Positions 5,447 to 26,205 are shown, numbered from the stretch's first letter. The stretch is 61,714 nucleotides of DNA from a bacterium (GCA_021811565.1 JAJZOL010000147.1:1-61714); one strand, 5' to 3'. Made by a program: numbers and translations. Notes: generated from the sequence alone by a model not told the origin.

Positions 5447-6061
5447 ATGCAAACCGACAAGGGAATCACAATAGGGATTTTGGCTCTTCAAGGGGATTAC
5501 GAAGCGCACAAAAAAATGATAGACCAAATTGGCGGAGCGACTACCATATTGGTTCGCTCAGTGGAGGAGTTGCAAAAGTGCGATGGAGTGATCATCCCTG
5601 GCGGGGAGAGCACCACAATAGGAAAGCTGCTTGTCAAGCATGATATCATAGAACCCCTGATTCATAAAGTGCAGGACGGCATGCCTCTCTATGGCACTTG
5701 TGCAGGGATGATCCTCATGGCGAAGGAGATAGAGGGGAGCGAGCAGACCCGGCTTGGGGTGACAAATATCTCCGTCGCAAGAAACGCCTTTGGAAGACAG
5801 GTGGACAGCTTCGAGGCTCAGATCCCCTTCTCTTCTTTGGAGGGGGAAGCGGTGGAAGGGGTTTTCATTCGCGCCCCATACGTTACCAAAACCTGGGGCG
5901 ATGTGGAAATCCTCGCAAAATATCAGGATAAAATCGTGGGGGTGCGTGAAAAGAACATGCTCGCCACCGCTTTTCATCCGGAATTAACTTCGGATACGAG
6001 GGTGCATGAGCTATTTCTGAAGATGGTGCGATCGTCCGTGCGGAACGTCTCAAAGCCCTAA
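5447..6061 (+). CDS. pdxT: Pyridoxal 5'-phosphate synthase glutaminase subunit
   Basis: GILALQG, IIPGGESTT, GTCAGMI, RNAFGRQVDSFE, VFIRAP, FHPEL. Start moved to ATG 5447 after GAGGGA. Confidence 0.95.
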   Translation: MQTDKGITIGILALQGDYEAHKKMIDQIGGATTILVRSVEELQKCDGVIIPGGESTTIGKLLVKHDIIEPLIHKVQDGMPLYGTCAGMILMAKEIEGSEQTRLGVTNISVARNAFGRQVDSFEAQIPFSSLEGEAVEGVFIRAPYVTKTWGDVEILAKYQDKIVGVREKNMLATAFHPELTSDTRVHELFLKMVRSSVRNVSKP

Positions 6062-7371
6062 GGCTCATCCTGGGAAGCATTTCTGACTTGTCCCGCGATT
6101 TCCCCATATAATTCCCGGGTTTGACGGATCATATCATCAATTCGATAGTGTTTGGCGATGCCTTCCCGAGCGGATTTGCCGTATGCGTCCGCTATCTCGG
6201 GATGATCCATCCAATCCCTCAAAATGTCCGCAAACTCCTCCGGCTTGTCTTTATCGAAAAGCGCCCCACCGGAAGTGATACCGATAAGTTCCGGAAAGAC
6301 ACCATGGTTGGGGGCGATGACAGGCACCCCGCAAGCCATCGCCTCCATCATCGCCATACTTCTAACCTCGGGGATTCTACTCGGAACCGAGAAAGCGCTG
6401 CAGGATCGTAGCATTCGCGTTTTTTCCGCGAAATCAATCTCCCCTAGATACTTGAATTCCATATTGACGCACTGAGAGATGGAGGCTTGCACCTGCATCC
6501 AATATTTGATATCCATTACTTTCCCCGCGACAAGCAAACGAACCCTACCCATTCCGCGTTTGGTGAGAATCCTCAGAGCCTCAGCCAAAACATCCAACCC
6601 TTTTCCATGCGTGATCGCGGATACGTAACCAACGGTGAATGGCTCTCTGTTTCTGTTGGCGATGCTTTCATATCTTGTCAAATCAACGCCGGTCGGTATC
6701 ACATGGATATTCTCATAAGGCAATCGAAGATACGCCGCCATTCGTTCCGCCGCATCGTGACTAGGCGAGATGAAACAGTCCACGGCACGCACGTTCTCCT
6801 GCATTTGCCGCCAAACCTTTGATCTCCATTCCTCGGGAAACACCTCCACGAAACTATCCTCTCCTTGAAAGGCGCAGACCACGGGGATATTGTATCTCAC
6901 TCTAATATCTGGGGCCACGGATGAGAGAAGAGTGTTCGTGATGCTCACGAGATCAAAAGGCTGCAGAGTATCCATATGGGCGAGAAGTTTATCCATCTCC
7001 TTGCGTTGAAAACCCCTACGCCCAAGCAGCACGGAGTGTGTCATGGGTCCCAATTCCTCGGCTTTCACGCTCACAGCGAATTTGCTCGCCCAAAGGAGAA
7101 GTTTGGGATTATCCAACAGACGATCCGTCCATACCGGCGTTTTGCGGAAAAAAGGGATATTTTGCTGCAGCCAGGAGTTTATGCCGCCAAGAAAGATTTT
7201 GTTTTGAGGAATCGCCTGAAAAAGGTCGGAATCCACGCGAAGAGGAGTGTAAAGCGGAAGGATGATGACATCGTCTCCTTGAGCGATCAGACCATTTGCC
7301 AAGGAGATATCGCGTGCGCACGCTCCGCAATACATTCCGCCGGCGCCCGCCGCTAAATGGACAATCCTCAT
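6058..7371 (-). CDS. Glycosyltransferase family 4 (GT-B) with N-terminal CxxC
   Basis: GKGLDVL, PSRIPE...EAMACGVPVI...GVFPEL; N-terminal AGAGGMYCGAC. ATG 7371 follows GGAGG. Confidence 0.85.
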   Translation of the reverse strand: MRIVHLAAGAGGMYCGACARDISLANGLIAQGDDVIILPLYTPLRVDSDLFQAIPQNKIFLGGINSWLQQNIPFFRKTPVWTDRLLDNPKLLLWASKFAVSVKAEELGPMTHSVLLGRRGFQRKEMDKLLAHMDTLQPFDLVSITNTLLSSVAPDIRVRYNIPVVCAFQGEDSFVEVFPEEWRSKVWRQMQENVRAVDCFISPSHDAAERMAAYLRLPYENIHVIPTGVDLTRYESIANRNREPFTVGYVSAITHGKGLDVLAEALRILTKRGMGRVRLLVAGKVMDIKYWMQVQASISQCVNMEFKYLGEIDFAEKTRMLRSCSAFSVPSRIPEVRSMAMMEAMACGVPVIAPNHGVFPELIGITSGGALFDKDKPEEFADILRDWMDHPEIADAYGKSAREGIAKHYRIDDMIRQTRELYGEIAGQVRNASQDEP

Positions 7372-7405
7372 TTCCAACCTCCGTTCAAGACGCTATCCGA
7401 TCGCC

Positions 7406-9130
7406 TTAGCCCGTATGTGCAAGGATTGTATTCACCAAAAACCGGAGCAAATTCCCGATGGGTTTCTTCTCTATCTGGTCCGCGATGGTGAGACATCGCG
7501 CCTTCAGTAGATCAACTAATGCATCCGCTTTTGTGAAAGCTCCCATGCTCTCGTATAGCTCCCTGACTTCCTGGATGGAAACCATTCCGGATTGCACATC
7601 TTGGGCAGTGGGAATGTTGGAGCCTTTTTCGGATGCAAACGCTCGAAGGATGGTAGGGCGGCAGGAAAGAAAATCCTGCCCCATATGCACCTTGTTCTCC
7701 TCGGATTCGCTCCAGTCATCCAGATCGTTTACGATCTGGTAACCTTGACCCAGATAGGAGGAAAAACGGGATAGCAGTTCCTTATCCATTTGGTATCCTG
7801 CAGACCTTAAGCCGGCGAATAACGCCGCCTCAAAAGCCTTGGAGGTCTTTTGCGCATAGATGGATAACACCTCCAACGGTTTCAGGTTTTCAGAGCCATT
7901 GGAAACGCTCATCAATTCCGCCCCTTGTCCGCGACAAAGGTTCAGGTGAGCCGCACCAAGATGCGCGAGAATGTCCGAAGTAACATCCGCGCCTATGTCG
8001 CTGACTTGCCGTGACACAAGAAGATAGCCCAATCCAATGAGAAAATCGCCGACATTGAGAGCTGTCGCCACTCCGTAACGATGATGCAGTGTGTCATCCC
8101 CGTATCGCCAATTATCACCGTCCTCAATATCATCATGCACCAAGGACGCCTTGTGCAGACATTCGATGGCGATGGCGATATGTCGAACGGAATCCGGAAT
8201 GAGGGATTCCAAATTCGCCCCCTCCTCCATGACGATATCGCCATGCTTGGCAACCCCATACGCCGCAAGGGTGATGAACGGTCGAAACCTCTTGCCCCCC
8301 TCCAATATCCATTCATACGAGATACGATCCGTTTCGGTCGAGAACCCGCCGTCGGGGGAGCGATCAAAAACCGTAGCGAGATGCCTTTCCAAATTGCGGA
8401 TGGCGAAGATGGACCGGGTGTGTCTTAGCATAGGAACGTATGACAGATAATCCTGCTGACGATCCTCGGTTCGCAGTTCCATAATGCGTTTGACAAGAGA
8501 TATTTCCGCCTCGGTGTCCTTGCAACCGTCGCGTAAGAGAGGGACCGCCACCATGGGAACCCCCAAATTCGATACGCGTTCATAGGATTTCTCCAGGGAA
8601 TCGAGGCACGCGACGCCAAGAATGGCGTCAGCCTCATTGTCGAGCACCTTCATAATGACCGATGTTGTGCCTTCGGCGATAATCACCTGATATCCAAGCT
8701 CATCCGCTCTGCTTTTGAGGGAATGGATGTCACACGCACCGCATCCTGCGCAGTTCAACCCAACGGAATCATAAGTCCCTCTGCACGCTTTCTGATCTCT
8801 GAGGCAATGCGGCAGCAGCAGTAAACGGCGATTAAATGGCGTCGCAGCGTAGCGGCGCTTCCAAAAGGCGTTGCTTAGTTCAACCATGGCAAAGCCAAGG
8901 TATTCCAGCCTCTCCTGCATGGAGGATAAGAGATGAATCCCGTGGAACTCCAACTCGGTTCGATCCGGCGGGGAGTTTGTGAAGGATGCGGAAGCGATCC
9001 GTAGCGATTCCGCGCGAATTGCGGAACGCACTTCGGCGTCCTGTGGCACCTGTTTAATATTTGATGGCTTGATGGTGGATTCGCCGGAAGGTTTGAAAAT
9101 CATGGAAATAACGGTATCTCTTTGCGCCAC
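7406..9130 (-). CDS. DUF116 domain fused to trans-polyprenyl diphosphate synthase
   Basis: N-terminal RLLLLPHCLR..C..CAGCGAC..GVAC..GC (DUF116-like); C-terminal GGKRFRP, first Asp-rich motif HDDIED, GQG, KT, second motif NDLDD. Confidence 0.85.
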   Translation of the reverse strand: MAQRDTVISMIFKPSGESTIKPSNIKQVPQDAEVRSAIRAESLRIASASFTNSPPDRTELEFHGIHLLSSMQERLEYLGFAMVELSNAFWKRRYAATPFNRRLLLLPHCLRDQKACRGTYDSVGLNCAGCGACDIHSLKSRADELGYQVIIAEGTTSVIMKVLDNEADAILGVACLDSLEKSYERVSNLGVPMVAVPLLRDGCKDTEAEISLVKRIMELRTEDRQQDYLSYVPMLRHTRSIFAIRNLERHLATVFDRSPDGGFSTETDRISYEWILEGGKRFRPFITLAAYGVAKHGDIVMEEGANLESLIPDSVRHIAIAIECLHKASLVHDDIEDGDNWRYGDDTLHHRYGVATALNVGDFLIGLGYLLVSRQVSDIGADVTSDILAHLGAAHLNLCRGQGAELMSVSNGSENLKPLEVLSIYAQKTSKAFEAALFAGLRSAGYQMDKELLSRFSSYLGQGYQIVNDLDDWSESEENKVHMGQDFLSCRPTILRAFASEKGSNIPTAQDVQSGMVSIQEVRELYESMGAFTKADALVDLLKARCLTIADQIEKKPIGNLLRFLVNTILAHTG

Positions 9131-9214: not shown

Positions 9215-10981
9215 TCAGCCATGAATCATTTTATTTTTTTGCAATTTGTACCGCCCCAGAGCTTCCAAAGTCCAAATAATAGGATACAACTTTTCCGAAT
9301 ACCAAAGGCTTGTGAAATAGAGGCCAATTGGCGCTGGATTTTCGTAGGCACGAGTACGGCAACCTCTCAGCAAAAAATCAACGCCTCTCTCAGCCTCCTG
9401 GATATGGCCGCACGCCAAAAGAGCGATCACGGATAACGAAGTTTCCTCCATGGTGGAGAATATTCCTTTTCCGCCGCCCCATCCCCCATCATCGTTTTGA
9501 ACATCCAGAAGATAGTGAACTCCTTTATCCCTTTCCGGCTGCAGTTCATTCAGTTCTCCCAGCGCCAATAGGACTCGGCTCGCCCCCACCACTCTGTTCT
9601 CGCCATGCGGAGCGTACTGATTACCGAACCATAGTGGAACCCATGAGCCATCCTCGCATTGATTTTTTTTAAGCCATTCCAAACCTCTTCGAATGCTGTT
9701 TGACACATTCACATGGGATAACATCTTGGCATAAGGGGAGATGGCTCGCAAGGCGTGTGCGGTAATATCCGGACAACTTCGATCGAAAGGCAATCCGCTC
9801 CAGCCTTTGCAAAAGGTCGGCCATCCGCCATCGTCGTTTTGAAGTCGCAATAACCATTTCAACCCTGCCCATTCCCGCGCCTCTCCTTGAAGACGATAGA
9901 GCGCTATTAGCACAGCCGATGTATCGTCAGCGTCAGGAACACTACCCGGATGATGATTCCATCCCCACCCACCCGCATCCGCTCCCGTGTAGGGATGGCG
10001 AACGAGTTGTTGCCGCCCATAAAGCCATTCCTTAATGGCCAGGGGATCGATTCCCGGGGAAAATTCAATCCATTTGAATAAGCTCAAAATATGAGATGTG
10101 ATCCAAACGGAGAGGTTCGTATCTATCGGCCAACTTCCATCAGGACGCATGGACCAACGGAGAAATGCGAAACATTTTTTGGTGATGGGATGCTGAGGGT
10201 CAAAACGATTCGCCAGAGCCATCGCAACAAAGGAGGTTAAGGGAGTCGCATCAAGAAAACCACCATGGGCGGGCTGGATCTCCTCCAATTTCTCCATAAC
10301 CTTCGGAATGCACACCTGCCGCAAAGCTCCTGCAAACGGATTCGCAGTGGGGTTTCTTTGTTCCACCAACATTCCGATGGCGATCAATGCCGGGAGAGCG
10401 TAACTAACCACTCCTAGTTTCAGGAATTTAAACAAGCCCTGCGGAACTGCCGCCAGCTCGAAAGGCAGATCCGGCACGCACTTCCAATCCACCAATCCCG
10501 CAAGGGCGCAATTCATCAGTATCGGCGCTGAAAAAGTTCGATCCTCACTGTATAGCTCGAGAACGCCTTTTGCGACCTCACCGTTATGGTTGACCAAAGC
10601 CTTTTTCAACCATGCGTTCATCCCCTGCAATGCATTGGTAACGAGCAGGTGTTTCAAGTCCGCTATTTTTTTTTCATTCAGACGAATTGCGGCCTTCACG
10701 AGCAGAGTGGTGGAGAGATTTGAGGGACTGTCAGTGGTATCCCCCCATCCTCCATCCGGATTCTGATGGACCAAGAGCCATTCCAAACCTGCATGCAATC
10801 TTTCTTCATCCTCGGGTTCGTTTGAAAATGAGAGAGCGGAAAGAGCGGTTGCGTTGGATAAGGCTGACGAGGATAAACGCCCCTCCCAATGAGAACCCTC
10901 AATAATCTCCTTGGCGAGGATGCTCTTCAACTGCACAATCGCTTCATCAATTTCAGGGTTCAACAGGGAGTTCAGTGACAT
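9215..10981 (-). CDS. Squalene-hopene cyclase-like class II terpene cyclase
   Basis: DxDD motif PDADDT; QW repeats QNPDGGWG, QNDDGGWP, QCEDGSW, QNDDGGWG; DRSCPDITAH. Confidence 0.88.
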   Translation of the reverse strand: MSLNSLLNPEIDEAIVQLKSILAKEIIEGSHWEGRLSSSALSNATALSALSFSNEPEDEERLHAGLEWLLVHQNPDGGWGDTTDSPSNLSTTLLVKAAIRLNEKKIADLKHLLVTNALQGMNAWLKKALVNHNGEVAKGVLELYSEDRTFSAPILMNCALAGLVDWKCVPDLPFELAAVPQGLFKFLKLGVVSYALPALIAIGMLVEQRNPTANPFAGALRQVCIPKVMEKLEEIQPAHGGFLDATPLTSFVAMALANRFDPQHPITKKCFAFLRWSMRPDGSWPIDTNLSVWITSHILSLFKWIEFSPGIDPLAIKEWLYGRQQLVRHPYTGADAGGWGWNHHPGSVPDADDTSAVLIALYRLQGEAREWAGLKWLLRLQNDDGGWPTFCKGWSGLPFDRSCPDITAHALRAISPYAKMLSHVNVSNSIRRGLEWLKKNQCEDGSWVPLWFGNQYAPHGENRVVGASRVLLALGELNELQPERDKGVHYLLDVQNDDGGWGGGKGIFSTMEETSLSVIALLACGHIQEAERGVDFLLRGCRTRAYENPAPIGLYFTSLWYSEKLYPIIWTLEALGRYKLQKNKMIHG

Positions 10982-12546
10982 GATTTTCGCATCGGCGCCT
11001 TTTTGGATTCTTTCTCATCGGAAGCGGTTCCATATGAGGGGCTTTTCCGTGAGTGCAATCTCCTCATATTGAGCAAAAGACTCCACTCAAGCACCTGACC
11101 TCGCCCCATCCCTTGCATGAGCAACCTCTTCCCCAAACCAACGCCGGCTCCGGACTGATTGTCCCAATACATTTTGGGAGTCCAATAAAAATTCAGGTTG
11201 TAGCATCTCTTAATCAAATCCCAATGAGACCGACGCAGATCGTTCGGGTTCGGAGACCGTGAGCCATCCACGGGGGCGTAAAGAACCGGAAACACAGTGA
11301 CGCGCTCATTCGAAAGACGTTCCACCCATTCCATCGTCATTTGGATATCGTGTTCCGTCTCGTAAGGCAAACTAATAATAAGACTTACCAGAGGAAAGAA
11401 GCCTGCACATACAAGCCTGCGCACTTGATCCTCGGAAAATTCCGCCCAAGCGTCGGCTCCACCGCGTCCCATCTTGGCTCCGCCTCCGTTTTTCCTTAAT
11501 AGCGATCCACTGGCGGTTTCAACGCCAATATTCACCCATGGGTATTCATGCCGCTGCCCCCGCGTTAGCAATAGGCGTATTTGATGCAATTGGTCATCGG
11601 AATACTGAGACACGCTTAGCACATTGCAATGATCGAGTTGGATCAGCTTTAACCCCTCCACCTCCCTCACTTTTTCCAAGAGGCGTATGGGACTATCCGG
11701 ATTCACTTGCAAGCCGTTTGCGCCGTAACGAAAAAAATCCTCGCTAAGGATGGCGATGTTGGGTTTACCCGTCTCCACGTTCGTGCGAACGTCCTTGATA
11801 ATCGTCTCATGAGGCAGGTGTATCATCGCGGTTTTACGAATGGTGCAAAAGGCGCATCCCAAACCGCATCCTCGGCTTATCTCGACCACGCCCATGGTAC
11901 TCGGGTGTCGTATGGGTGGGATATTTTCGGCGGAAACCGATTCCCCTTCGATTATGGACGGGATTTCGTCTCCGGAAACAATCCTGTGAAAGATGGAGGA
12001 TACGTTTCCCTCTGCGTACCCCGTAACCAGATAGTCAATGGGAAGCTCCCGCGAGGCAATTCTCTCTCGCAACTGCCAAGCTCCGGGGCCTCCAAGCACC
12101 ACTTTCACATGGGGATATGCATTCTTCAATCGCCGAATATTCCCCATCAATTTGCGAAACATTCGATAAGGGTAAATGGAACCACCGGAGATGCCGCACA
12201 TGGTGGAGCTATTCATGCCAAATCCGGCAGGTTCACCGGAGGAGACTGCGATAATGGCTGTATCCTCTCCAACGAAATCCGGGAGAGAATCCGGATCAGC
12301 AACCACCACTTCCCCTTCGGTAAATCCGCCCGCGAGAAGAGCCGCCTCAATTCGTCTGAGACCAAGGGGGGCAAACTTCGCAACGCCGCCTTCCGAGGCA
12401 GGTCGTTTCATCAAAAGGTGCGTCATCAAAAAAGAGGGTGTGGTGGTCGTTTGACTGGCCGCTAGCATTCCGTCGAAAAGCAGATCGTAATCGGCTATAA
12501 GTGTGCGATCCGCAGTTAGCAGGATTCTGCAGCCCTTTCCATTCAA
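10972..12546 (-). CDS. B12-binding-like domain / radical SAM protein resembling the archaeal Grs/Gms family
   Basis: CxxxCxxC in EISRGCGLGCAFC; ILLTADRTL..DY, APLGLRRIEAAL, VVLGGPGAWQL, GVETAS, LPYETEHD. The radical SAM call is firm; the subfamily is from recalled motifs. Confidence 0.8.
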   Translation of the reverse strand: MNGKGCRILLTADRTLIADYDLLFDGMLAASQTTTTPSFLMTHLLMKRPASEGGVAKFAPLGLRRIEAALLAGGFTEGEVVVADPDSLPDFVGEDTAIIAVSSGEPAGFGMNSSTMCGISGGSIYPYRMFRKLMGNIRRLKNAYPHVKVVLGGPGAWQLRERIASRELPIDYLVTGYAEGNVSSIFHRIVSGDEIPSIIEGESVSAENIPPIRHPSTMGVVEISRGCGLGCAFCTIRKTAMIHLPHETIIKDVRTNVETGKPNIAILSEDFFRYGANGLQVNPDSPIRLLEKVREVEGLKLIQLDHCNVLSVSQYSDDQLHQIRLLLTRGQRHEYPWVNIGVETASGSLLRKNGGGAKMGRGGADAWAEFSEDQVRRLVCAGFFPLVSLIISLPYETEHDIQMTMEWVERLSNERVTVFPVLYAPVDGSRSPNPNDLRRSHWDLIKRCYNLNFYWTPKMYWDNQSGAGVGLGKRLLMQGMGRGQVLEWSLLLNMRRLHSRKSPSYGTASDEKESKKAPMRKSCH

Positions 12547-13370
12547 TTGCGTCTCCCATAAATTGAATCCACTTGATCTATTAGTGCGTCCAACTCGTCC
12601 ATCACGATATTTGATGTTGCAGGTTCAGGCTTACTGATACGAACAGGTCTGGTGCACTCCTCGCAAGTGGGTGCGCCCGGGGAAGGGATTAGGAACGGAC
12701 CCTCCTGACCGCATTTTGGACATTTGGCTTTCGTTCTGGTGTAGTACATATGCCTAGCTTGCCTGTCCGGTTGCATTAGCAATCCTGGCGCCCCGGCAAT
12801 TGCAGGATCCTTTGCATAGAGAGGAAAGATAATCGCCCCATTCGGACAGATGCGACTGCAAGCAGGACAGCCCGGCTTGCACAGATCCGGATTTGCAACT
12901 TGGACCACGCCGTTTTCGTCCGTCTCGTGAACACCAAACAGACAAAACTGCAGGCAGTTCAGGCAGTTTGTACATCTCGACCTGTCCACAACCGGATACC
13001 ATCGAACAAGCTGTCGGGTTTGCAACACATTAGGGTTGGCTGGCGTAACAGTGTTATCCTCGGGGAGTGCGCCCCATGCCGGATCAGAGGGGATATCCGA
13101 AAAATGATAGCAGATCAGAGATTGTCTCCCCACGTTGTGTTTACGCAATAACCACTCCGCAGGGCGGGGATGTAACCATGAGATGAATATAATATCCCCA
13201 TCCATTTTTGATAGCTCATCCCAAATGCAATCGTTTTCAGATACGTGATACAGATGCGGGGTCACGGTAACCGCCACTCCGAATTGTCCGGAGAGTTTGC
13301 GAATAAGTTGATTTTCCTGGGGGAGAGAATCCACTTCTCCGCTTCTGGACAGTATAATGTTAATTGACAT
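12543..13370 (-). CDS. Ferredoxin-domain protein (2x[4Fe-4S]) with C-terminal Cys pairs
   Basis: CTNCLNCLQFC and CKPGCPACSRICP, plus CPKC...CEEC. The stop overlaps the radical SAM start. Confidence 0.8.
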   Translation of the reverse strand: MSINIILSRSGEVDSLPQENQLIRKLSGQFGVAVTVTPHLYHVSENDCIWDELSKMDGDIIFISWLHPRPAEWLLRKHNVGRQSLICYHFSDIPSDPAWGALPEDNTVTPANPNVLQTRQLVRWYPVVDRSRCTNCLNCLQFCLFGVHETDENGVVQVANPDLCKPGCPACSRICPNGAIIFPLYAKDPAIAGAPGLLMQPDRQARHMYYTRTKAKCPKCGQEGPFLIPSPGAPTCEECTRPVRISKPEPATSNIVMDELDALIDQVDSIYGRRN

Positions 13371-13564: not shown

Positions 13565-15013
13565 ATGAAAAACAAGATCATCTCCTGGGGAGTGCCCATA
13601 GGCGTCACGCTGACTTGTGTCGCCATTCTTTTGGGTCTTATAATGCATGAACAGCGGATAAACAATTTCCCTGAACGCCCGCTAAACGTGGAGCCGGCAA
13701 AGACTATTCAAAAACAAAACGTGGCGCAAACCGCCGCTCCCACATCCTCGACTCCATCCACCACGGCGACAACGGCTCCAACTCAGCAATCATCCTATAA
13801 ATTCACCGGGGTGAATGTTGCGAATCTACCAGGCTCCTGGCCCTGCTTTCGCGGCCCAAACCACGATGATATCAGCCCGGAAAAAGTGGCGTTATCGTCT
13901 GACTGGCAAAAAAATCCTCCTCATCTCCTGTGGTCGATAAATTTAGGGGAGGGATACGCCTCGGCGGCAATTGAGCATGGCAAGGTCTATGTGCTGGATT
14001 ACGACGAAGCGCACCAGGAGGATGCCCTACGTTGTCTTTCCCTTGCAAACGGTCAGGAGATATGGCGGCAATCCTATCCCGATCCTATCAAGCGCAATCA
14101 CGGAATGAGCCGAACCATTCCGGCGGTTTCAGGAAAATACGTGGTTTCCCTCGGACCGCAATGCCACGTGTTATGCGCGGATGCCGACACGGGGAAAATA
14201 TTCTGGCAGATGGACTTGGTCAAACAGTTTGGAACCACTGTGCCGCAATGGTACGCGGGACAATGCCCCCTCATCGATGGGAATAATGTTATCCTCGCTC
14301 CGGCGGGAAATGTCCTGATGATCGCGGTGAACCTTGCGACAGGGAAAATCGTCTGGCGAACGCCGAATCCGATGGGATGGCAAATGACGCACTCCTCGAT
14401 CGCGAAAGCCACCTTCCATAATCAATCCATTTATGTCTATTGCGGCAGCGGTGGAGCGGTTGGCGTCTCGGCGAAGGATGGCTCCATACTCTGGCAAACG
14501 ACGGACTGGAAGGTGAGCACAGCCACCGTCCCCACTCCCATCTGCCTTCCCGATGGTCGTATCTTCTTCACGGGGGGATACGGTGCGGGCAGCGCGATGA
14601 TGCAAATGACCGAGCAGGGCGGCAAATTCTCAATCCAGACGCTTTATCGATTAACTCCCGACGTTTTCGGATCTGATCAGCAAACGCCTATTTTATACAA
14701 AGGTTATATTTACGGCGTGCGATCCGGTGGGGAGCTTGTCTGCCTTAATCTTAACGGGCAACCCCAATGGACCAGCGGAGCCACTCGACGTTTCGGGCTT
14801 GGACCCTATCTAATAGCCGACGGACTGATTTTTATCATGAATGATTCGGGAGTACTCACCATGGTGCAAGCCACGCCGACAGCTTATCACGAACTGGGAG
14901 ATATTCAAATCTTGAGCGGTCCGGATTCCTGGGGTCCAATGGCAATCGCGGGTGGCTTGCTAATCGCAAGGGACCTGAACAGAATGGTCTGCTTGGATAT
15001 GCGCTTACACTAA
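13565..15013 (+). CDS. Membrane-anchored PQQ-like (BamB-like) beta-propeller protein
   Basis: N-terminal TM, Thr/Pro linker, WPCFRGP, repeated A.TG..W blades, W.PMAIAGG.L..RD. Confidence 0.85.
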   Translation: MKNKIISWGVPIGVTLTCVAILLGLIMHEQRINNFPERPLNVEPAKTIQKQNVAQTAAPTSSTPSTTATTAPTQQSSYKFTGVNVANLPGSWPCFRGPNHDDISPEKVALSSDWQKNPPHLLWSINLGEGYASAAIEHGKVYVLDYDEAHQEDALRCLSLANGQEIWRQSYPDPIKRNHGMSRTIPAVSGKYVVSLGPQCHVLCADADTGKIFWQMDLVKQFGTTVPQWYAGQCPLIDGNNVILAPAGNVLMIAVNLATGKIVWRTPNPMGWQMTHSSIAKATFHNQSIYVYCGSGGAVGVSAKDGSILWQTTDWKVSTATVPTPICLPDGRIFFTGGYGAGSAMMQMTEQGGKFSIQTLYRLTPDVFGSDQQTPILYKGYIYGVRSGGELVCLNLNGQPQWTSGATRRFGLGPYLIADGLIFIMNDSGVLTMVQATPTAYHELGDIQILSGPDSWGPMAIAGGLLIARDLNRMVCLDMRLH

Positions 15014-15260: not shown

Positions 15261-16208
15261 ATGAAATGGCGATTGATATTACTCGGCTTAGTTGCCATTC
15301 TCTTTGGATTATGGGGGATCGTCTTATGGAAAATCGCCCCCCAATCAACCACTGCTCTGGATTCATTCCAAGCCATAAGAAACGTCCCCGAAAAGTGGCT
15401 TACATGGAAGGAGGTCGCCTCTTACCCGTTGCCAGCCTCCGGAGTTAACGATATTGCGGTTGACGGAAAAGGAAGGATATACGCGGCATGCGACAAGGGC
15501 TTGCTGATCTTCACACGGAAGGCTCAGCAGCCAAATGTGGTTCCTACTCCCGAGCCTCCTATGTGCGTTGCACTGCAGGATGATAAAATATATATGGGCA
15601 TAAAAGATCATATTGAAGTCATCTCGCGATCCGCGAACCAAATCGTAAACTGGGCGCCGCCCGCGATCAATGCACAAATAATAAACATTGCAGTGAATAA
15701 ATCATACGTTTATGCAGCGGATGCAGGAAATAAGCTCGTATGGAAATATGATATTCGGGGAAACATTGTTGGAACGATTGGGCGCCCCGATCCCGCTAAA
15801 GATATCATGGGGTTCATATTACCCAGCCCGCACTTGGACATTGCGATCCAAAGAGATGGCAACCTGTACGTAAACAATCCCGGGCGCCATATGGTGGAGG
15901 CATTCACTCCGAATGGTAGATTGATTTCATCGTTCGGGGGGGGAGGGAACTCGATTAATAAGTTCTGCGGATGCTGCAACCCTATTCGTATCGCCTTGCT
16001 ACCATCCGGGGATATCGTAACTTCGGAAAAAGGGTTGCCGAGAGTGAAGGTGATCAAACCGAATGGATCATTGGATAGCGTGATTTTGGGTCCCAAGGCT
16101 TTTTCACAAAACACCGATGATATCCCTATTGCCACCGATGCGCAGGGAAACGTATATATCGCGAACAATTACACAAAGCAACTGAACGTATACGCCAGGG
16201 ATAATTGA
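15261..16208 (+). CDS. Membrane-anchored NHL-repeat beta-propeller with FCGCCNP motif
   Basis: N-terminal TM; DIAVD.KG.IY, YAADAGN, NNPGRHMVEAF blades; FCGCCNP. Confidence 0.8.
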   Translation: MKWRLILLGLVAILFGLWGIVLWKIAPQSTTALDSFQAIRNVPEKWLTWKEVASYPLPASGVNDIAVDGKGRIYAACDKGLLIFTRKAQQPNVVPTPEPPMCVALQDDKIYMGIKDHIEVISRSANQIVNWAPPAINAQIINIAVNKSYVYAADAGNKLVWKYDIRGNIVGTIGRPDPAKDIMGFILPSPHLDIAIQRDGNLYVNNPGRHMVEAFTPNGRLISSFGGGGNSINKFCGCCNPIRIALLPSGDIVTSEKGLPRVKVIKPNGSLDSVILGPKAFSQNTDDIPIATDAQGNVYIANNYTKQLNVYARDN

Positions 16209-16260
16209 CAGAGACACACATCTCCCGGCGGGACAAATATCTGAAAGATTTAGGCGCGAC

Positions 16261-16491
16261 ATGAATAATGATGTAAAAAACAGGCGGGAATTCCTTACGG
16301 GAATCATTCGCGGGGCGATGGCAACCGCCATGGTTGGAGGAATCGGAGCGATGGTTTTTCGCAAATCACGCGGATGCCCCGAACTTCCCATCTGCACGCA
16401 ATGCGGTTATTACGGCGATTGTGACCTTCCACGAGCCTTGGAAACTCGTCAAGCGGAAAGGATCAAAACAGATGGCCGCCACCGACAATAA
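16261..16491 (+). CDS. Small Tat-motif membrane protein with four Cys
   Basis: NRREFL, hydrophobic helix, then C-X5-C-X2-C-X5-C; fills the gap and overlaps the next start. Confidence 0.7.
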   Translation: MNNDVKNRREFLTGIIRGAMATAMVGGIGAMVFRKSRGCPELPICTQCGYYGDCDLPRALETRQAERIKTDGRHRQ

Positions 16492-17044
16492 GAAATCCAG
16501 ACGAGAGTTTATCGCTGATGGAATCCGGACAGGAGGGTTGATTATTGCTAGCGGAGCCATCGGAGCCCTTGCCGCCAGTTCGCATGCCGAAGACACGGTC
16601 TGGCAGATCGATCCCTATAAATGCACGAATTGCGGGCTTTGCGCCACATCCTGCGTTTTGGATCAATCGGCTGTCAAGTGCATGCACGCCTTCGCCATGT
16701 GCGGTTATTGCAATTTGTGCTCCGGAATGTTGCGTCCCGAAAGAGTGGGCAACACCATTGAAGCGGAAAACGTGCAATGCCCGACTTTCGCGATCCAACG
16801 ATCGTATGTCGAGAACCCGTATTTTCAGTATGTCATCGATGAAAACCTCTGTATTGGATGCGCGAAATGCTCCAAGGGATGCAATGCCTTCGGAAACGGT
16901 TCCCTGTTCATGCAGATTCGACATGATCGATGCCTGAACTGCAACCAGTGTTCCATAGCGGAAGTCTGTCCGGCGCAGGCGATTGTGCGAGTTCCCGCCA
17001 GCAAACCGTATCTGCTTAAATCCAAGATCAAACAGGACGGTTAA
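16472..17044 (+). CDS. Tat-exported polyferredoxin (NapG/MauM-like)
   Basis: Start re-assigned to ATG 16472. SRREFI Tat signal with SHA cleavage-like site; CTNCGLCATSC, CGYCNLC, CIGCAKCSKGC, CLNCNQC...CP. Confidence 0.82.
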   Translation: MAATDNKKSRREFIADGIRTGGLIIASGAIGALAASSHAEDTVWQIDPYKCTNCGLCATSCVLDQSAVKCMHAFAMCGYCNLCSGMLRPERVGNTIEAENVQCPTFAIQRSYVENPYFQYVIDENLCIGCAKCSKGCNAFGNGSLFMQIRHDRCLNCNQCSIAEVCPAQAIVRVPASKPYLLKSKIKQDG

Positions 17045-23730: not shown

Positions 23731-26205
23731 ATGAGAAACCTTATCGGAGCCTCCCTGCCAATTCTGAATAAGAAGGGGCTGAGAAAAAACAGCATACAAA
23801 GCACGAGTGATGCGGATAATATTAATCCCATTGCATATGTGGAGGAGCTGGTTGAGACCACGGGGCGCGGAACGGAGGCACTGTTGCCCATTCTTCAGGC
23901 GATACAGACTAAATTCCGATATCTGCCTGAAGAGGCATTACGTCACGTGTGTCGGATCACGCAAATCAGACCGGCGGATATTGATGGGGTTGCGAGTTTC
24001 TATTCCCAGTTTCGCAGAAAGCCTGTAGGAAGATTCACAATCAACGTTTGTCACGGAACGGCTTGTCATGTAAAAGGCTCCGGATTAGTGCATGAGGCGC
24101 TCGCTCGTTACTTGGAGTTAAACCCTGGCGAGGATACCGATAAGGCGGGTCTTTTTACATTACAGCGTGTGTTTTGCCTGGGATGCTGCACGTTGGCTCC
24201 GGTGATGCAAATTGAGGGCGTCACATATGGTCATCTTTCCACGGAAAATGCGGATCGCGCCTTGAAGGATTTCCTGAAGCTCGATTCCGAATCGGGCGTT
24301 GTCAAGGCTGCCGATAAGAGATTCCCGAACCATTTCGATATGGCTGAGATTCGCGTTGGCATGGGATCATGCTGCATCGCCATAGGAAGCCAGAAGGTGC
24401 AAAACGTTATCGAGGAGACCATCCGTCACTATAACATCCCCGCCGTTATCAAACCCGTCGGATGCATTGATGCCTGTCATCTTGCTCCAACCGTTGAGAT
24501 CATCCCGCATTATTCCCCTAACTCCATGCCGGAAAGCGTTGCTGAAAGTGAAAACGAAGGCGGAAATTCAATCCTCTTTACAAAGGTGACCCCGGAAAAA
24601 GCGGAGAAAATCATCCGAACCCATCTTAAACCTCAAGGCATATTCCCTCGAATGAAGGAGATATACGCAGAGGCGCTGGACAAGTTCGATGTGGATGAAG
24701 GACCTGTCACGCGCTATTCCTCGGAAGTGCGCGAGGGGGCGATCTGTGATTTTCTCGGTGGGCAGGTGCATATTGCCACCGAGAGTTGCGGCTCGCTTCA
24801 ACCGTTGAATTTAAAAGAGTATCGCATACGGGACGGTTTTCAGGCGTTGGAGGAGGTGTTACAATCATCCGACCCCGAATCGGTGATAGAGACCGTTACG
24901 GAATCCGGCTTGCGTGGGCGGGGAGGCGCTGGATTCAGAACCGGTCTGAAATGGAGACGAGTGCATGAAGCACTTGGAGACGAGAAATATGTTGTGATGA
25001 ACGGAGACGAGGGTGACCCTAGCGCATTTATGGACCGCATGCTATTGGAGTCCTATCCTTTTCGTATTTTGGAAGGGATGATAATCGGAGCTTTCGCCGT
25101 CGGCGCACACGAAGGAATTCTCTACATCCGCGCGGAATACCCTCTTGCAACTCGAATAATGCGAGAGGCGATTAGAATTTGCGAGGAGAACAACCTGCTC
25201 GGCGAGAGAATACTGGATTCCAATTTCACGCTACGACTCAAAGTGATGGAAGGTGCGGGCGCATTCGTTTGCGGCGAGGAGACGGCGTTGCTTTCGAGTA
25301 TCGAAGGCAAGCGGGGTGAGCCGAGAATTCGTCCGCCCTACCCCGCCGAATCAGGATTGTGGGGAAAACCAACACTCATCAATAACGTGGAGACCTATGC
25401 GATGGTTCCATGGATCATTCGCCATGGCGCTAAGGCGTACGCGGCGATAGGCACGGATACCAGCAAGGGCACCAAGGTTTTTTCGCTGACAGGGAAAATC
25501 GCACGGGGTGGATTGATAGAGGTTCCCATGGGAACGAGCTTGCGGCATATCGTTGAAGTTATCGGCGGCGGAACCCCGAATGGCAAATTCAAAGCGGTGC
25601 AAATAGGAGGACCGTCCGGAGGATGCATTCCAGCCGATTTAGCCGATATCCCCATAGACTACGAGGCGCTGCAAAGCGTCGGGGCTTTTGTGGGAAGCGG
25701 CGGGTTAGTGGTTTTAGATGAGCACGATTGCATGGTGGACATCGCGCGATATTTTCTCAACTTCACTCAAAACGAGTCTTGTGGCAAATGCACCTTCTGT
25801 CGCGTGGGGACACGAAGGCTGTTGGAGATGTTGGATAAAATAGCCACTGGCAAGGGGAAGCCGGGGGATATCGATAAATTGGAGGAACTCGCGTTGCAGG
25901 TGAAGCAATCCAGCCTCTGCGGGTTGGGACAATCCGCTCCCAATCCTATCCTCTCCACTTTGCGATATTTTCGTGACGAATACGAGGCGCATATTCAAGG
26001 GCGATGCCCTGCGGGAAAATGCAAGGACTTGGTCCATTACCGAATCGGAGACAAATGCAACGGATGCACGAAATGCTCCCAAATATGCCCAGTGAATGCC
26101 ATACCCATACGACCTTATGAAAAACACTCCATTGACGACTCCCTTTGCACGAGATGTGATTCCTGCAGGCAAATTTGCCCGGTGGAAGCCATCCATGTGG
26201 AATAA
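23731..26205 (+). CDS. Fused NuoE + thioredoxin-like [2Fe-2S] + NuoF + 2x[4Fe-4S] NAD(P)H oxidoreductase (HydC-HydB/Hnd-like)
   Basis: CHGTAC...CLGCC; GMGSCC...GCIDAC; RGRGGAGF, GDEGDPSAFMDR, GAGAFVCGEETAL, GGPSGG, ESCGKCTFCRVGT, SLCGLGQ, CPAGKC, two terminal CxxCxxCxxxCP. Confidence 0.9.
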   Translation: MRNLIGASLPILNKKGLRKNSIQSTSDADNINPIAYVEELVETTGRGTEALLPILQAIQTKFRYLPEEALRHVCRITQIRPADIDGVASFYSQFRRKPVGRFTINVCHGTACHVKGSGLVHEALARYLELNPGEDTDKAGLFTLQRVFCLGCCTLAPVMQIEGVTYGHLSTENADRALKDFLKLDSESGVVKAADKRFPNHFDMAEIRVGMGSCCIAIGSQKVQNVIEETIRHYNIPAVIKPVGCIDACHLAPTVEIIPHYSPNSMPESVAESENEGGNSILFTKVTPEKAEKIIRTHLKPQGIFPRMKEIYAEALDKFDVDEGPVTRYSSEVREGAICDFLGGQVHIATESCGSLQPLNLKEYRIRDGFQALEEVLQSSDPESVIETVTESGLRGRGGAGFRTGLKWRRVHEALGDEKYVVMNGDEGDPSAFMDRMLLESYPFRILEGMIIGAFAVGAHEGILYIRAEYPLATRIMREAIRICEENNLLGERILDSNFTLRLKVMEGAGAFVCGEETALLSSIEGKRGEPRIRPPYPAESGLWGKPTLINNVETYAMVPWIIRHGAKAYAAIGTDTSKGTKVFSLTGKIARGGLIEVPMGTSLRHIVEVIGGGTPNGKFKAVQIGGPSGGCIPADLADIPIDYEALQSVGAFVGSGGLVVLDEHDCMVDIARYFLNFTQNESCGKCTFCRVGTRRLLEMLDKIATGKGKPGDIDKLEELALQVKQSSLCGLGQSAPNPILSTLRYFRDEYEAHIQGRCPAGKCKDLVHYRIGDKCNGCTKCSQICPVNAIPIRPYEKHSIDDSLCTRCDSCRQICPVEAIHVE

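Follow-up and report, generated by a model that had tools for sequence, protein, structure and literature searches.

The 61,714-nucleotide stretch of planctomycete DNA analysed here (GCA_021811565.1, JAJZOL010000147.1:1-61714; hereafter the window) carries a gene for a radical S-adenosylmethionine (radical SAM) protein, P0001, which is the second of five minus-strand genes lying head to tail from position 13370 to position 6058. P0001 belongs to a bacterial clade that groups with an archaeal family, very probably that of the glycerol dialkyl glycerol tetraether (GDGT) ring synthases, Grs, and its gene shares a conserved operon with those of a terpene cyclase and a prenyl diphosphate synthase. 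On balance it seems probable that P0001 is a Grs-type radical SAM enzyme of a terpenoid operon, that it acts on a cyclised polyprenoid, and that the product is an undescribed terpenoid lipid or glycolipid and not a GDGT. The five genes are as follows.

12543-13370, minus strand: ferredoxin-like protein P0003 (275 amino acids), with a 2x[4Fe-4S] ferredoxin domain.
10972-12546, minus strand: Grs-like radical SAM protein P0001 (524 amino acids), an open reading frame (ORF) with a TTG start and a Pfam Radical_SAM match.
9215-10981, minus strand: class II terpene cyclase P0002 (588 amino acids), similar to squalene-hopene cyclase (SHC-like), with SQHop_cyclase domains and a DxDDT motif.
7406-9130, minus strand: fusion protein P0004 (574 amino acids) of a DUF116 domain and a trans-polyprenyl diphosphate synthase domain.
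6058-7377, minus strand: GT4-family glycosyltransferase P0005 (439 amino acids), the last gene of the operon in the window.

The TTG start of the radical SAM gene overlaps the stop codon of the ferredoxin-like gene as TTGA, and its own stop codon (TGA, 10974-10972) lies within a 10-nt overlap with the cyclase gene, which starts at ATG 10981-10979. Because of these start/stop overlaps, translation of the radical SAM gene is probably coupled to that of both neighbours. The cyclase matches SQHop_cyclase_C at 115.8 bits and SQHop_cyclase_N at 66.5 bits in Pfam, and its proton-donor motif is intact, reading DADDT at residues 350-354, with DxDDT present in 67 of 67 homologues. Against the NCBIfam equivalog model for hopene cyclase P0002 reaches 114.7 bits, the cut-off being 431, and on that score it is not a true SHC. 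It does match the published description of an 'SHC-like' clade of Planctomycetes and other Gracilicutes, which is divergent from SHC with its catalytic residues kept and for which the surrounding genes hint at a precursor that is not squalene (Santana-Molina et al., 2020, PMC7306690; PMC12414744).

The arrangement is conserved beyond the window. Two sets of loci were surveyed, the first being 20 of the 30 Planctomycetota loci from 34 genomes with the radical SAM gene, each with about 8 kb of flank, in which a partner was scored as present at a tblastn score of at least 50 bits. The second comprised 80 metagenome loci, where a score of at least 60 bits was taken as presence and only loci with enough flank were counted for each gene (for the cyclase, at least 1.8 kb downstream). 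The ferredoxin-like gene was found upstream of the radical SAM gene at all 20 genome loci and at 56 of 65 metagenome loci, and the cyclase gene directly downstream at 19 of 20 and 48 of 55, respectively; at the sole genome locus with no adjacent cyclase (G018), the cyclase is on another contig. For the DUF116-synthase the counts are 17 of 20 and 38 of 43, respectively, and one of the three genome loci without it terminates inside the cyclase gene. The GT4 glycosyltransferase is a less constant member (8/20 and 10/37).

Co-occurrence was surveyed in a sample of 301 Planctomycetota genomes, 34 of which carry the radical SAM family. The cyclase occurs in 41, namely in all 34 genomes that have the radical SAM gene and in 7 of the 267 that do not. 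The link to a terpene cyclase claimed in a preliminary description of the window, which was made from the DNA alone, is thus upheld by the overlap, by the adjacency across loci and by the distribution across genomes. As a separate observation, seven genomes (G021, G026, G048, G229, G245, G273 and G287) carry an SHC-like cyclase 44-52% identical to P0002 with no Grs-like gene found, and three of these (G021, G026 and G245) have a gene similar to that of the radical SAM enzyme Tes.

The same description had proposed a radical SAM gene with four motifs, and all four lie in the minus-strand frame 10972-12546, which runs through 524 codons with no stop. They are ILLTADRTLIADY at residues 8-20, APLGLRRIEAAL at residues 59-70, GGPGAWQL at residues 152-159 and EISRGCGLGCAFC at residues 222-234, the last containing the CX3CX2C motif (C227, C231 and C234). 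P0001 matches Pfam Radical_SAM at 37.6 bits (cut-off 29.5). A word-indexed search, in which 8000 candidates were scored, returned 650 homologues at E ≤ 1e-3; among the best 120 of these the identity to P0001 is 51-91% and the length about 500 amino acids, and the few with names come from Armatimonadota, Planctomycetes and Thermoguttaceae metagenome-assembled genomes (MAGs). In an alignment of 20 bacterial sequences the four motif blocks are invariant or nearly so, and given such conserved homologues the motifs are judged to be far more than chance. Residues 8-26 are conserved across all homologues in this alignment, and for this reason the TTG start, overlapping the upstream stop codon, fits better than an ATG at residue 27. 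A public record of P0001 begins at this ATG and loses the conserved block 8-26, the affected stretch being 12466-12546 on the minus strand.

C227, C231 and C234 are the only invariant cysteines in the 20 bacterial sequences, so that P0001 is predicted to carry one [4Fe-4S] cluster, held by the CX3CX2C motif, and no auxiliary cluster. The AlphaFold2 model (predicted local distance difference test score 88.9) has a Rossmann N-terminal domain, a partial TIM-barrel radical SAM core and two C-terminal helices (439-467 and 471-498), which form an amphipathic pair. A sequence search of the PDB gave weak matches only, to MgmA (9ccb, E = 1.4e-4) and RimO, and the top Foldseek matches in the PDB were MgmA (E = 3e-17), MiaB, MtaB, RimO, AprD4, CysS, TsrM, TokK and OxsB. 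With MiaB, MtaB and RimO among the best structural matches, and the MtaB family mentioned in ESM Atlas cluster names, a non-lipid role in the methylthiolation of tRNA or protein might be considered. MiaB, MtaB and RimO have three N-terminal cysteines holding a second cluster, plus a C-terminal TRAM domain. P0001 has no conserved N-terminal cysteines and no TRAM match, it scores 63.6 bits against the subfamily model TIGR00089 (cut-off 251), and the other radical SAM paralogues of the same genome, which are MiaB-like, score at most 31 bits against it. Such a role appears highly improbable, and the same very low probability covers the chain-coupling role taken up below.

A profile of the 20 bacterial sequences, searched against 1.84 billion cluster representatives, matched 1892 proteins at E ≤ 1e-3, of which 206 reached E ≤ 1e-30. 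Scores above 480 bits were confined to a core of about 17 clusters, and a second set consisted of full-length proteins of about 480-590 amino acids at 170-370 bits. The organism names obtainable in the second set are archaeal, except for one contig binned as Peregrinibacteria and one Bryobacteraceae protein. The named rows among 120 profile matches include Nitrososphaerales, Bathyarchaeia, Baldrarchaeia, Methanocellales and Hadesarchaea, and cluster names, obtained for four of 20 representatives, are Bathyarchaeia, Promethearchaeia and Bryobacteraceae, plus 'YgiQ' labels from JGI. One scan of genome contigs with a 14-sequence profile gave 80 loci of the archaeal family, all from MAGs with no cultured reference among them. 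Seventy-nine of the 80 are archaeal (Archaeoglobaceae, Bathyarchaeia, Asgard lineages, Hadarchaeota, Methanobacterium, Thermoplasmatota and Ca. Alkanophaga). Positions 3-460 of the 517 in the profile of 14 archaeal members align with P0001 (E = 5.4e-112), and the 14 sequences have the same three invariant cysteines and one lone cysteine. No conserved neighbour of the archaeal family was found in the 80 loci; the commonest occurs in 13 of them, and those that are annotated are housekeeping genes.

The phylogenetic tree was drawn from a pool of 171 rows, made up of 139 rows (archaeal loci, bacterial loci, core representatives and outgroups) and 32 sister representatives. Greedy thinning at 62% identity left 92 rows, which were analysed with IQ-TREE ('quick', LG+C20+F+G4). 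Ten B12-type radical SAM proteins from five of the archaeal genomes served as the outgroup, the root being placed on other archaeal B12-type radical SAM proteins. The bacterial clade and the archaeal family group together against the other B12-type proteins, with a support of 98 in the Shimodaira-Hasegawa-like approximate likelihood ratio test (SH-aLRT), and a single clade holds 29 of the 30 bacterial rows (SH-aLRT 99). The thirtieth (L118) stands at the base of the family on an end branch of 4.14, a placement that probably reflects a wrong ORF pick. Two rows that had been labelled beforehand as the archaeal family fell in the outgroup, being canonical B12-type radical SAM proteins that adjoin true family members.

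Two bacterial names occur elsewhere in the family. A Bryobacteraceae (Acidobacteriota) MAG protein belongs to the cluster of P0188, and the clade of P0188 and P0262 stands among the archaeal Grs-like clades, apart from the planctomycetes; this protein would be a second, independent bacterial lineage. Acidobacteriota are known for branched GDGTs. The other is L094, a 2957-bp contig from a Candidatus Peregrinibacteria bin and the sole bacterial label in the 80 loci, which groups with Hadarchaeota and Alkanophaga, and the short contig is therefore probably misbinned.

Several lines of evidence make it very probable that the archaeal sister family is Grs. Grs proteins are described as B12-type radical SAM enzymes of megacluster 2-1 that lack an auxiliary cluster and have a Rossmann domain, a CX3CX2C motif and a C-terminal helix (PMC13459092, section 2.4; PMC11186832), and P0001 shares with them a length of about 500-530 amino acids, the Rossmann-like N-terminal domain, the partial TIM barrel with CX3CX2C, the C-terminal helical element and, as predicted, the single [4Fe-4S] cluster. 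The taxon spread of the archaeal family agrees with that given for GrsA homologues (PMC11214058). A gms-gmm-grs gene cluster has been described in Thermococcus guaymasensis (PMC11214058), and two Ca. Alkanophaga loci show a gene for a SPASM radical SAM protein, then one for a canonical B12-type radical SAM protein (Pfam B12 99 bits), then the family member. The SPASM protein of these loci is AhbD-like at 304 bits (cut-off 500), and SPASM reaches 37 bits in the Gms-like neighbours. Finally, a BLASTP search with GrsA of S. acidocaldarius (E<1e-30, identity at least 30%) is reported to match 94 of 684 Planctomycetota MAGs (PMC11868695, 2025), the planctomycete and Cloacimonadota homologues in that work coming from Black Sea MAGs. 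In the sample analysed here 34 of 301 genomes have the family; searches with the archaeal profile and with P0001 hit the identical 34 and no others, and the archaeal profile found no second Grs-like family in the sample. The planctomycete GrsA homologues of that work (PMC11868695) almost certainly represent the same family as P0001.

The preliminary description had set P0001 with an archaeal 'Grs/Gms' family and apart from the hopanoid enzymes HpnP, HpnR, HpnH and HpnJ. The affinity to the archaeal Grs-like proteins is supported (SH-aLRT 98; profile E = 5e-112; no Hpn model match), and the Grs half of the name very probably holds; the Gms half has to be dropped. Grs and Gms are not one family. 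Gms has a SPASM/twitch domain and auxiliary clusters and belongs to a different subfamily, mega-1-1-24 (PMC11186832, PMC11214058), whereas P0001 has no SPASM or AhbD-type match and no conserved cysteines beyond the three. Gms and Tes resemble Grs-type enzymes as radical SAM proteins that form C-C bonds on unactivated isoprenoid carbons. Tes, however, has auxiliary clusters and P0001 none, and the solved Tes structure is absent from the PDB sequence search with P0001 and from the Foldseek matches listed (E ≤ 0.0015).

P0001 also differs from the archaeal Grs-like proteins in several respects. As a bacterial protein it falls in a separate clade and is 24-32% identical to the archaeal Grs-like proteins. 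Its gene lies in an operon with a cyclase, a prenyl synthase and a dedicated ferredoxin-like gene, while the 80 archaeal loci show no conserved neighbour. Grs, which acts on GDGTs, is expected to co-occur with Tes and the archaeal ether-lipid pathway, whereas P0001 has no link to Tes or to geranylgeranylglyceryl phosphate (GGGP) synthase. Its substrate, moreover, is probably an unsaturated or cyclised polyprenoid and not a saturated biphytanyl chain.

HpnP, HpnR, HpnH and HpnJ are likewise radical SAM enzymes that modify the product of a class II triterpene cyclase, and P0001 could be thought of as a cobalamin-dependent C-methyltransferase of a cyclised terpenoid, comparable to HpnP and HpnR on hopanoids or Gmm and Cgm on GDGTs. 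Its Rossmann N-terminal domain is that of the B12-type radical SAM class, and homologues within the class are reported to switch among cyclisation, methylation and desaturation (bioRxiv 10.1101/2025.10.20.683597). Nevertheless, methylation seems unlikely. P0001 has no match at E ≤ 0.01 to the NCBIfam models of HpnP, HpnR, HpnH or HpnJ, and the best of its 13 NCBIfam matches at this threshold, TIGR04013, stands at 77.6 bits with a cut-off of 251. The canonical B12-type radical SAM proteins of the archaeal genomes, with Pfam B12-binding scores of 69-99 bits, lie in the outgroup of the tree, the B12-binding match of P0001 stays below the cut-off, and searches of the 92%-complete genome gave no CobS.

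The preferred reading, in which a Grs-type enzyme works on the product of the cyclase, can be laid out as a route of four steps. The route would begin with P0004, making a prenyl diphosphate of C20 or longer. P0004 has DDIED at residue 333 as its first aspartate-rich motif (FARM), preceded at positions -5 and -4 by the small residues Ala and Ser, and DDxxD is kept in 55 of 55 homologues together with Ala and Ser at these positions. In trans-prenyl synthases the chain-length rule reads the residues at positions -5 and -4 of this motif, and Ala and Ser there point to a product of C20 or longer. In the second step the cyclase would protonate the terminal double bond and generate a polycyclic head. 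In the third, P0001, reduced by the ferredoxin-like protein, would activate an unactivated C-H of the same skeleton by means of 5'-deoxyadenosyl radicals. In P0003 the 2x[4Fe-4S] ferredoxin domain lies between an N-terminal domain with no family match and a four-Cys ribbon at the C-terminus. All 63 homologues keep its eight cluster cysteines, and P0003 is the likely electron donor to the radical SAM cluster. Ring closure by C-C bond formation would be the favoured reaction of this step, purely by analogy with Grs, the alternatives being desaturation and methylation. In the fourth step the GT4 glycosyltransferase, where present, would attach a sugar. P0001 may or may not use cobalamin, given its weak match to B12-binding and the lack of a CobS hit in the genome.

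The DUF116 domain occupies residues 72-216 or thereabouts of P0004. All 55 homologues have it as an N-terminal fusion to the synthase, and all 55 keep its seven cysteines. The domain may be a binding site for a metal or an Fe-S cluster, perhaps acting in the pathway. Among the literature matches listed there was no study of DUF116 function, and most of them treat eukaryotic Vps13 domains.

If desaturation were the main activity, P0001 would be an anaerobic desaturase of isoprenoid chains similar to archaeal Ted, with a product perhaps used by the cyclase or by another enzyme. Desaturation of inert isoprenoid carbons by B12-type radical SAM enzymes has been shown in archaea (bioRxiv 10.1101/2025.10.20.683597), and one of the routes proposed for Grs goes via an olefin (PMC13459092, section 2.4). 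Ted is, however, described as a distant homologue of Gmm and not of Grs (bioRxiv 10.1101/2025.10.20.683597). Moreover, the chains supplied by the synthase are already unsaturated and leave little need for a desaturase unless first reduced, and the operon has no reductase, so that this activity appears very unlikely.

The preliminary description had further suggested that P0001 might stand in for squalene synthase by linking two prenyl chains; Pfam searches found no squalene synthase in the operon. This suggestion finds no support. The coupling of chains is carried out by Tes-type enzymes with auxiliary clusters, of which P0001 has none. The same genome has its own HpnC/HpnD pair on other contigs, as well as a true SHC that scores 478 bits, and the clade of the cyclase is described as sister to head-to-tail polyprenyl cyclases (PMC12414744). 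Like methylthiolation, chain coupling is given a very low probability.

A further alternative is that P0001 serves as a ring synthase for bacterial membrane-spanning lipids, that is, branched GDGT-like lipids made by a Tes homologue. It has already been proposed in print, where planctomycete GrsA homologues are read, together with Tes, as potential for ringed membrane-spanning lipids (PMC11868695), and it agrees with Grs chemistry being directed at such lipids. A search of the genome for Tes and GGGP synthase, which had been recommended at the outset, had a mixed result, with a Tes-like radical SAM protein found and PcrB/GGGP synthase not found in the 92%-complete genome. The Tes-like protein (483 amino acids) is encoded outside the window, on contig C84 of this genome (G000) at about 15967-16899 (locus L157:1081-2532). 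It scores 244.6 bits to PDB 7TOL, the solved GDGT/macrocyclic archaeol synthase (MAS) structure, and 291 and 326 bits against the NCBIfam models for Tes (NF045702, cut-off 450) and TrsS (cut-off 490), respectively. However, the gene lies on a different contig from the operon, and the radical SAM gene is tied to a cyclase and a prenyl synthase instead. At E ≤ 1e-40, 70 of the 301 genomes have a Tes-like gene, namely 4 of the 34 carriers of the radical SAM gene and 66 of the 267 others, and a genome of the same genus (G109) has the operon at about 90% identity with no Tes-like match. The main text of PMC11868695 contains no synteny or neighbourhood analysis. A role in membrane-spanning lipids is thus considered unlikely, and the substrate of P0001 is most likely a cyclised polyprenoid and not a tetraether.

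Several observations weigh against the interpretation of P0001 as a Grs-type enzyme of a terpenoid pathway. One group bears on the family assignment. The Grs label derives from descriptions, taxa, gene order and published BLAST results and not from direct comparison with Saci_1585, Saci_0240 or TK0167, and the identity of P0001 to archaeal family proteins is low, in the range given above. An order resembling gms-gmm-grs was seen in 2 of the 80 archaeal loci, a third locus (Baldrarchaeota) having a SPASM radical SAM neighbour only. The bacterial clade lies within a polytomy of archaeal clades with a backbone support of 80-86, and may be either nested within the archaeal family or its sister. 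The match to Pfam B12-binding is below threshold (24.2 bits, cut-off 32.1), and no CobS was found in the incomplete genome. Another group bears on the pathway. Grs acts on saturated chains, and no reductase was seen in the operon. The Tes-like gene on contig C84 belongs to this group as well. Related genomes are not independent, so that the co-occurrence counts overstate the evidence. Lastly, at 10 of the 80 metagenome loci the flank available holds none of the four partners; these ten form one derived subclade in a FastTree tree and have unrelated genes in their flanks.

As regards novelty, the GrsA homologues of planctomycetes (PMC11868695) and the SHC-like cyclase with its suggested non-squalene precursor (PMC7306690, PMC12414744) are already in print. 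The claim of the preliminary description is thus less new than was assumed, since the homologues were reported in 2025; their cyclase gene context is absent from the main text of PMC11868695. A radical SAM partner of the SHC-like cyclase is not mentioned in the main text of PMC7306690 or PMC12414744, although figure S10 of PMC7306690 may show one, and in the literature searched, supplementary files excluded, no paper was found that links a GrsA-like radical SAM protein to an SHC-like cyclase.

GrsA-like genes serve to infer the makers of ring-bearing tetraethers, and these lipids underlie palaeotemperature proxies. If membership in a terpene-cyclase operon is the true reading, the inference of ringed lipids from GrsA homologues would be wrong for a whole phylum, and about one ninth of the planctomycete genomes in the sample would make an unknown cyclised terpenoid lipid. 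The SHC-like cyclase clade, long unexplained, gains a gene set consisting of a prenyl synthase, the cyclase, a radical SAM protein, a ferredoxin-like protein and sometimes a glycosyltransferase, and since this set could be expressed as one unit the question is directly testable. More tentatively, and with a good deal of doubt, a hybrid route may be envisaged in Planctomycetota, Armatimonadota and their relatives, in which carbocation rings made by the cyclase are combined with Grs-type radical rings or cross-links, formed at unactivated carbons of the same polyprenoid, in undescribed terpenoid lipids or glycolipids. If so, Grs-type ring chemistry would be an older or horizontally shared isoprenoid toolkit and not a speciality of archaeal tetraethers, and a GrsA-like gene met in a bacterial metagenome would point to orphan polycyclic terpenoid biomarkers and not to ringed branched GDGTs.

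One protein in which the radical SAM and cyclase parts are joined was considered and rejected. P0442 (1118 amino acids, from one metagenome contig) was the only protein with both parts among the longer matches in a search for fusions. Its radical SAM match ends at residue 352 and is followed by 157 unmatched residues and then by the cyclase; it is most likely an artefact of an assembly frameshift and not a natural fusion.

Scanning of 20 ORFs showed no further lipid genes elsewhere in the window. Three other features of the window may be noted.

13565-15013, plus strand: PQQ_2 (BamB-like) beta-propeller protein (482 amino acids; Pfam PQQ_2 96 bits), divergent from the operon.
709-1350: DUF1559/N-methyl protein.
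23731-26205, plus strand: 824-amino-acid ORF with a NuoE-like [2Fe-2S] part, a NuoF-like flavin mononucleotide (FMN) part with a 4Fe-4S region, and a C-terminal dicluster ferredoxin domain.

Proteins of the DUF1559/N-methyl type are typical of Planctomycetota. The PQQ_2 protein has an N-terminal hydrophobic segment in its sequence, and a homologue of it (45-96% identity) stands beside the operon at 17 of the 20 planctomycete loci. A second, secreted PQQ_2 gene lies between the cyclase and the synthase at 10 of the 20 (e.g., L133:11346-12776), with the Pfam assignment confirmed on three of the ten. These PQQ_2 proteins may handle the lipid outside the cytoplasm.

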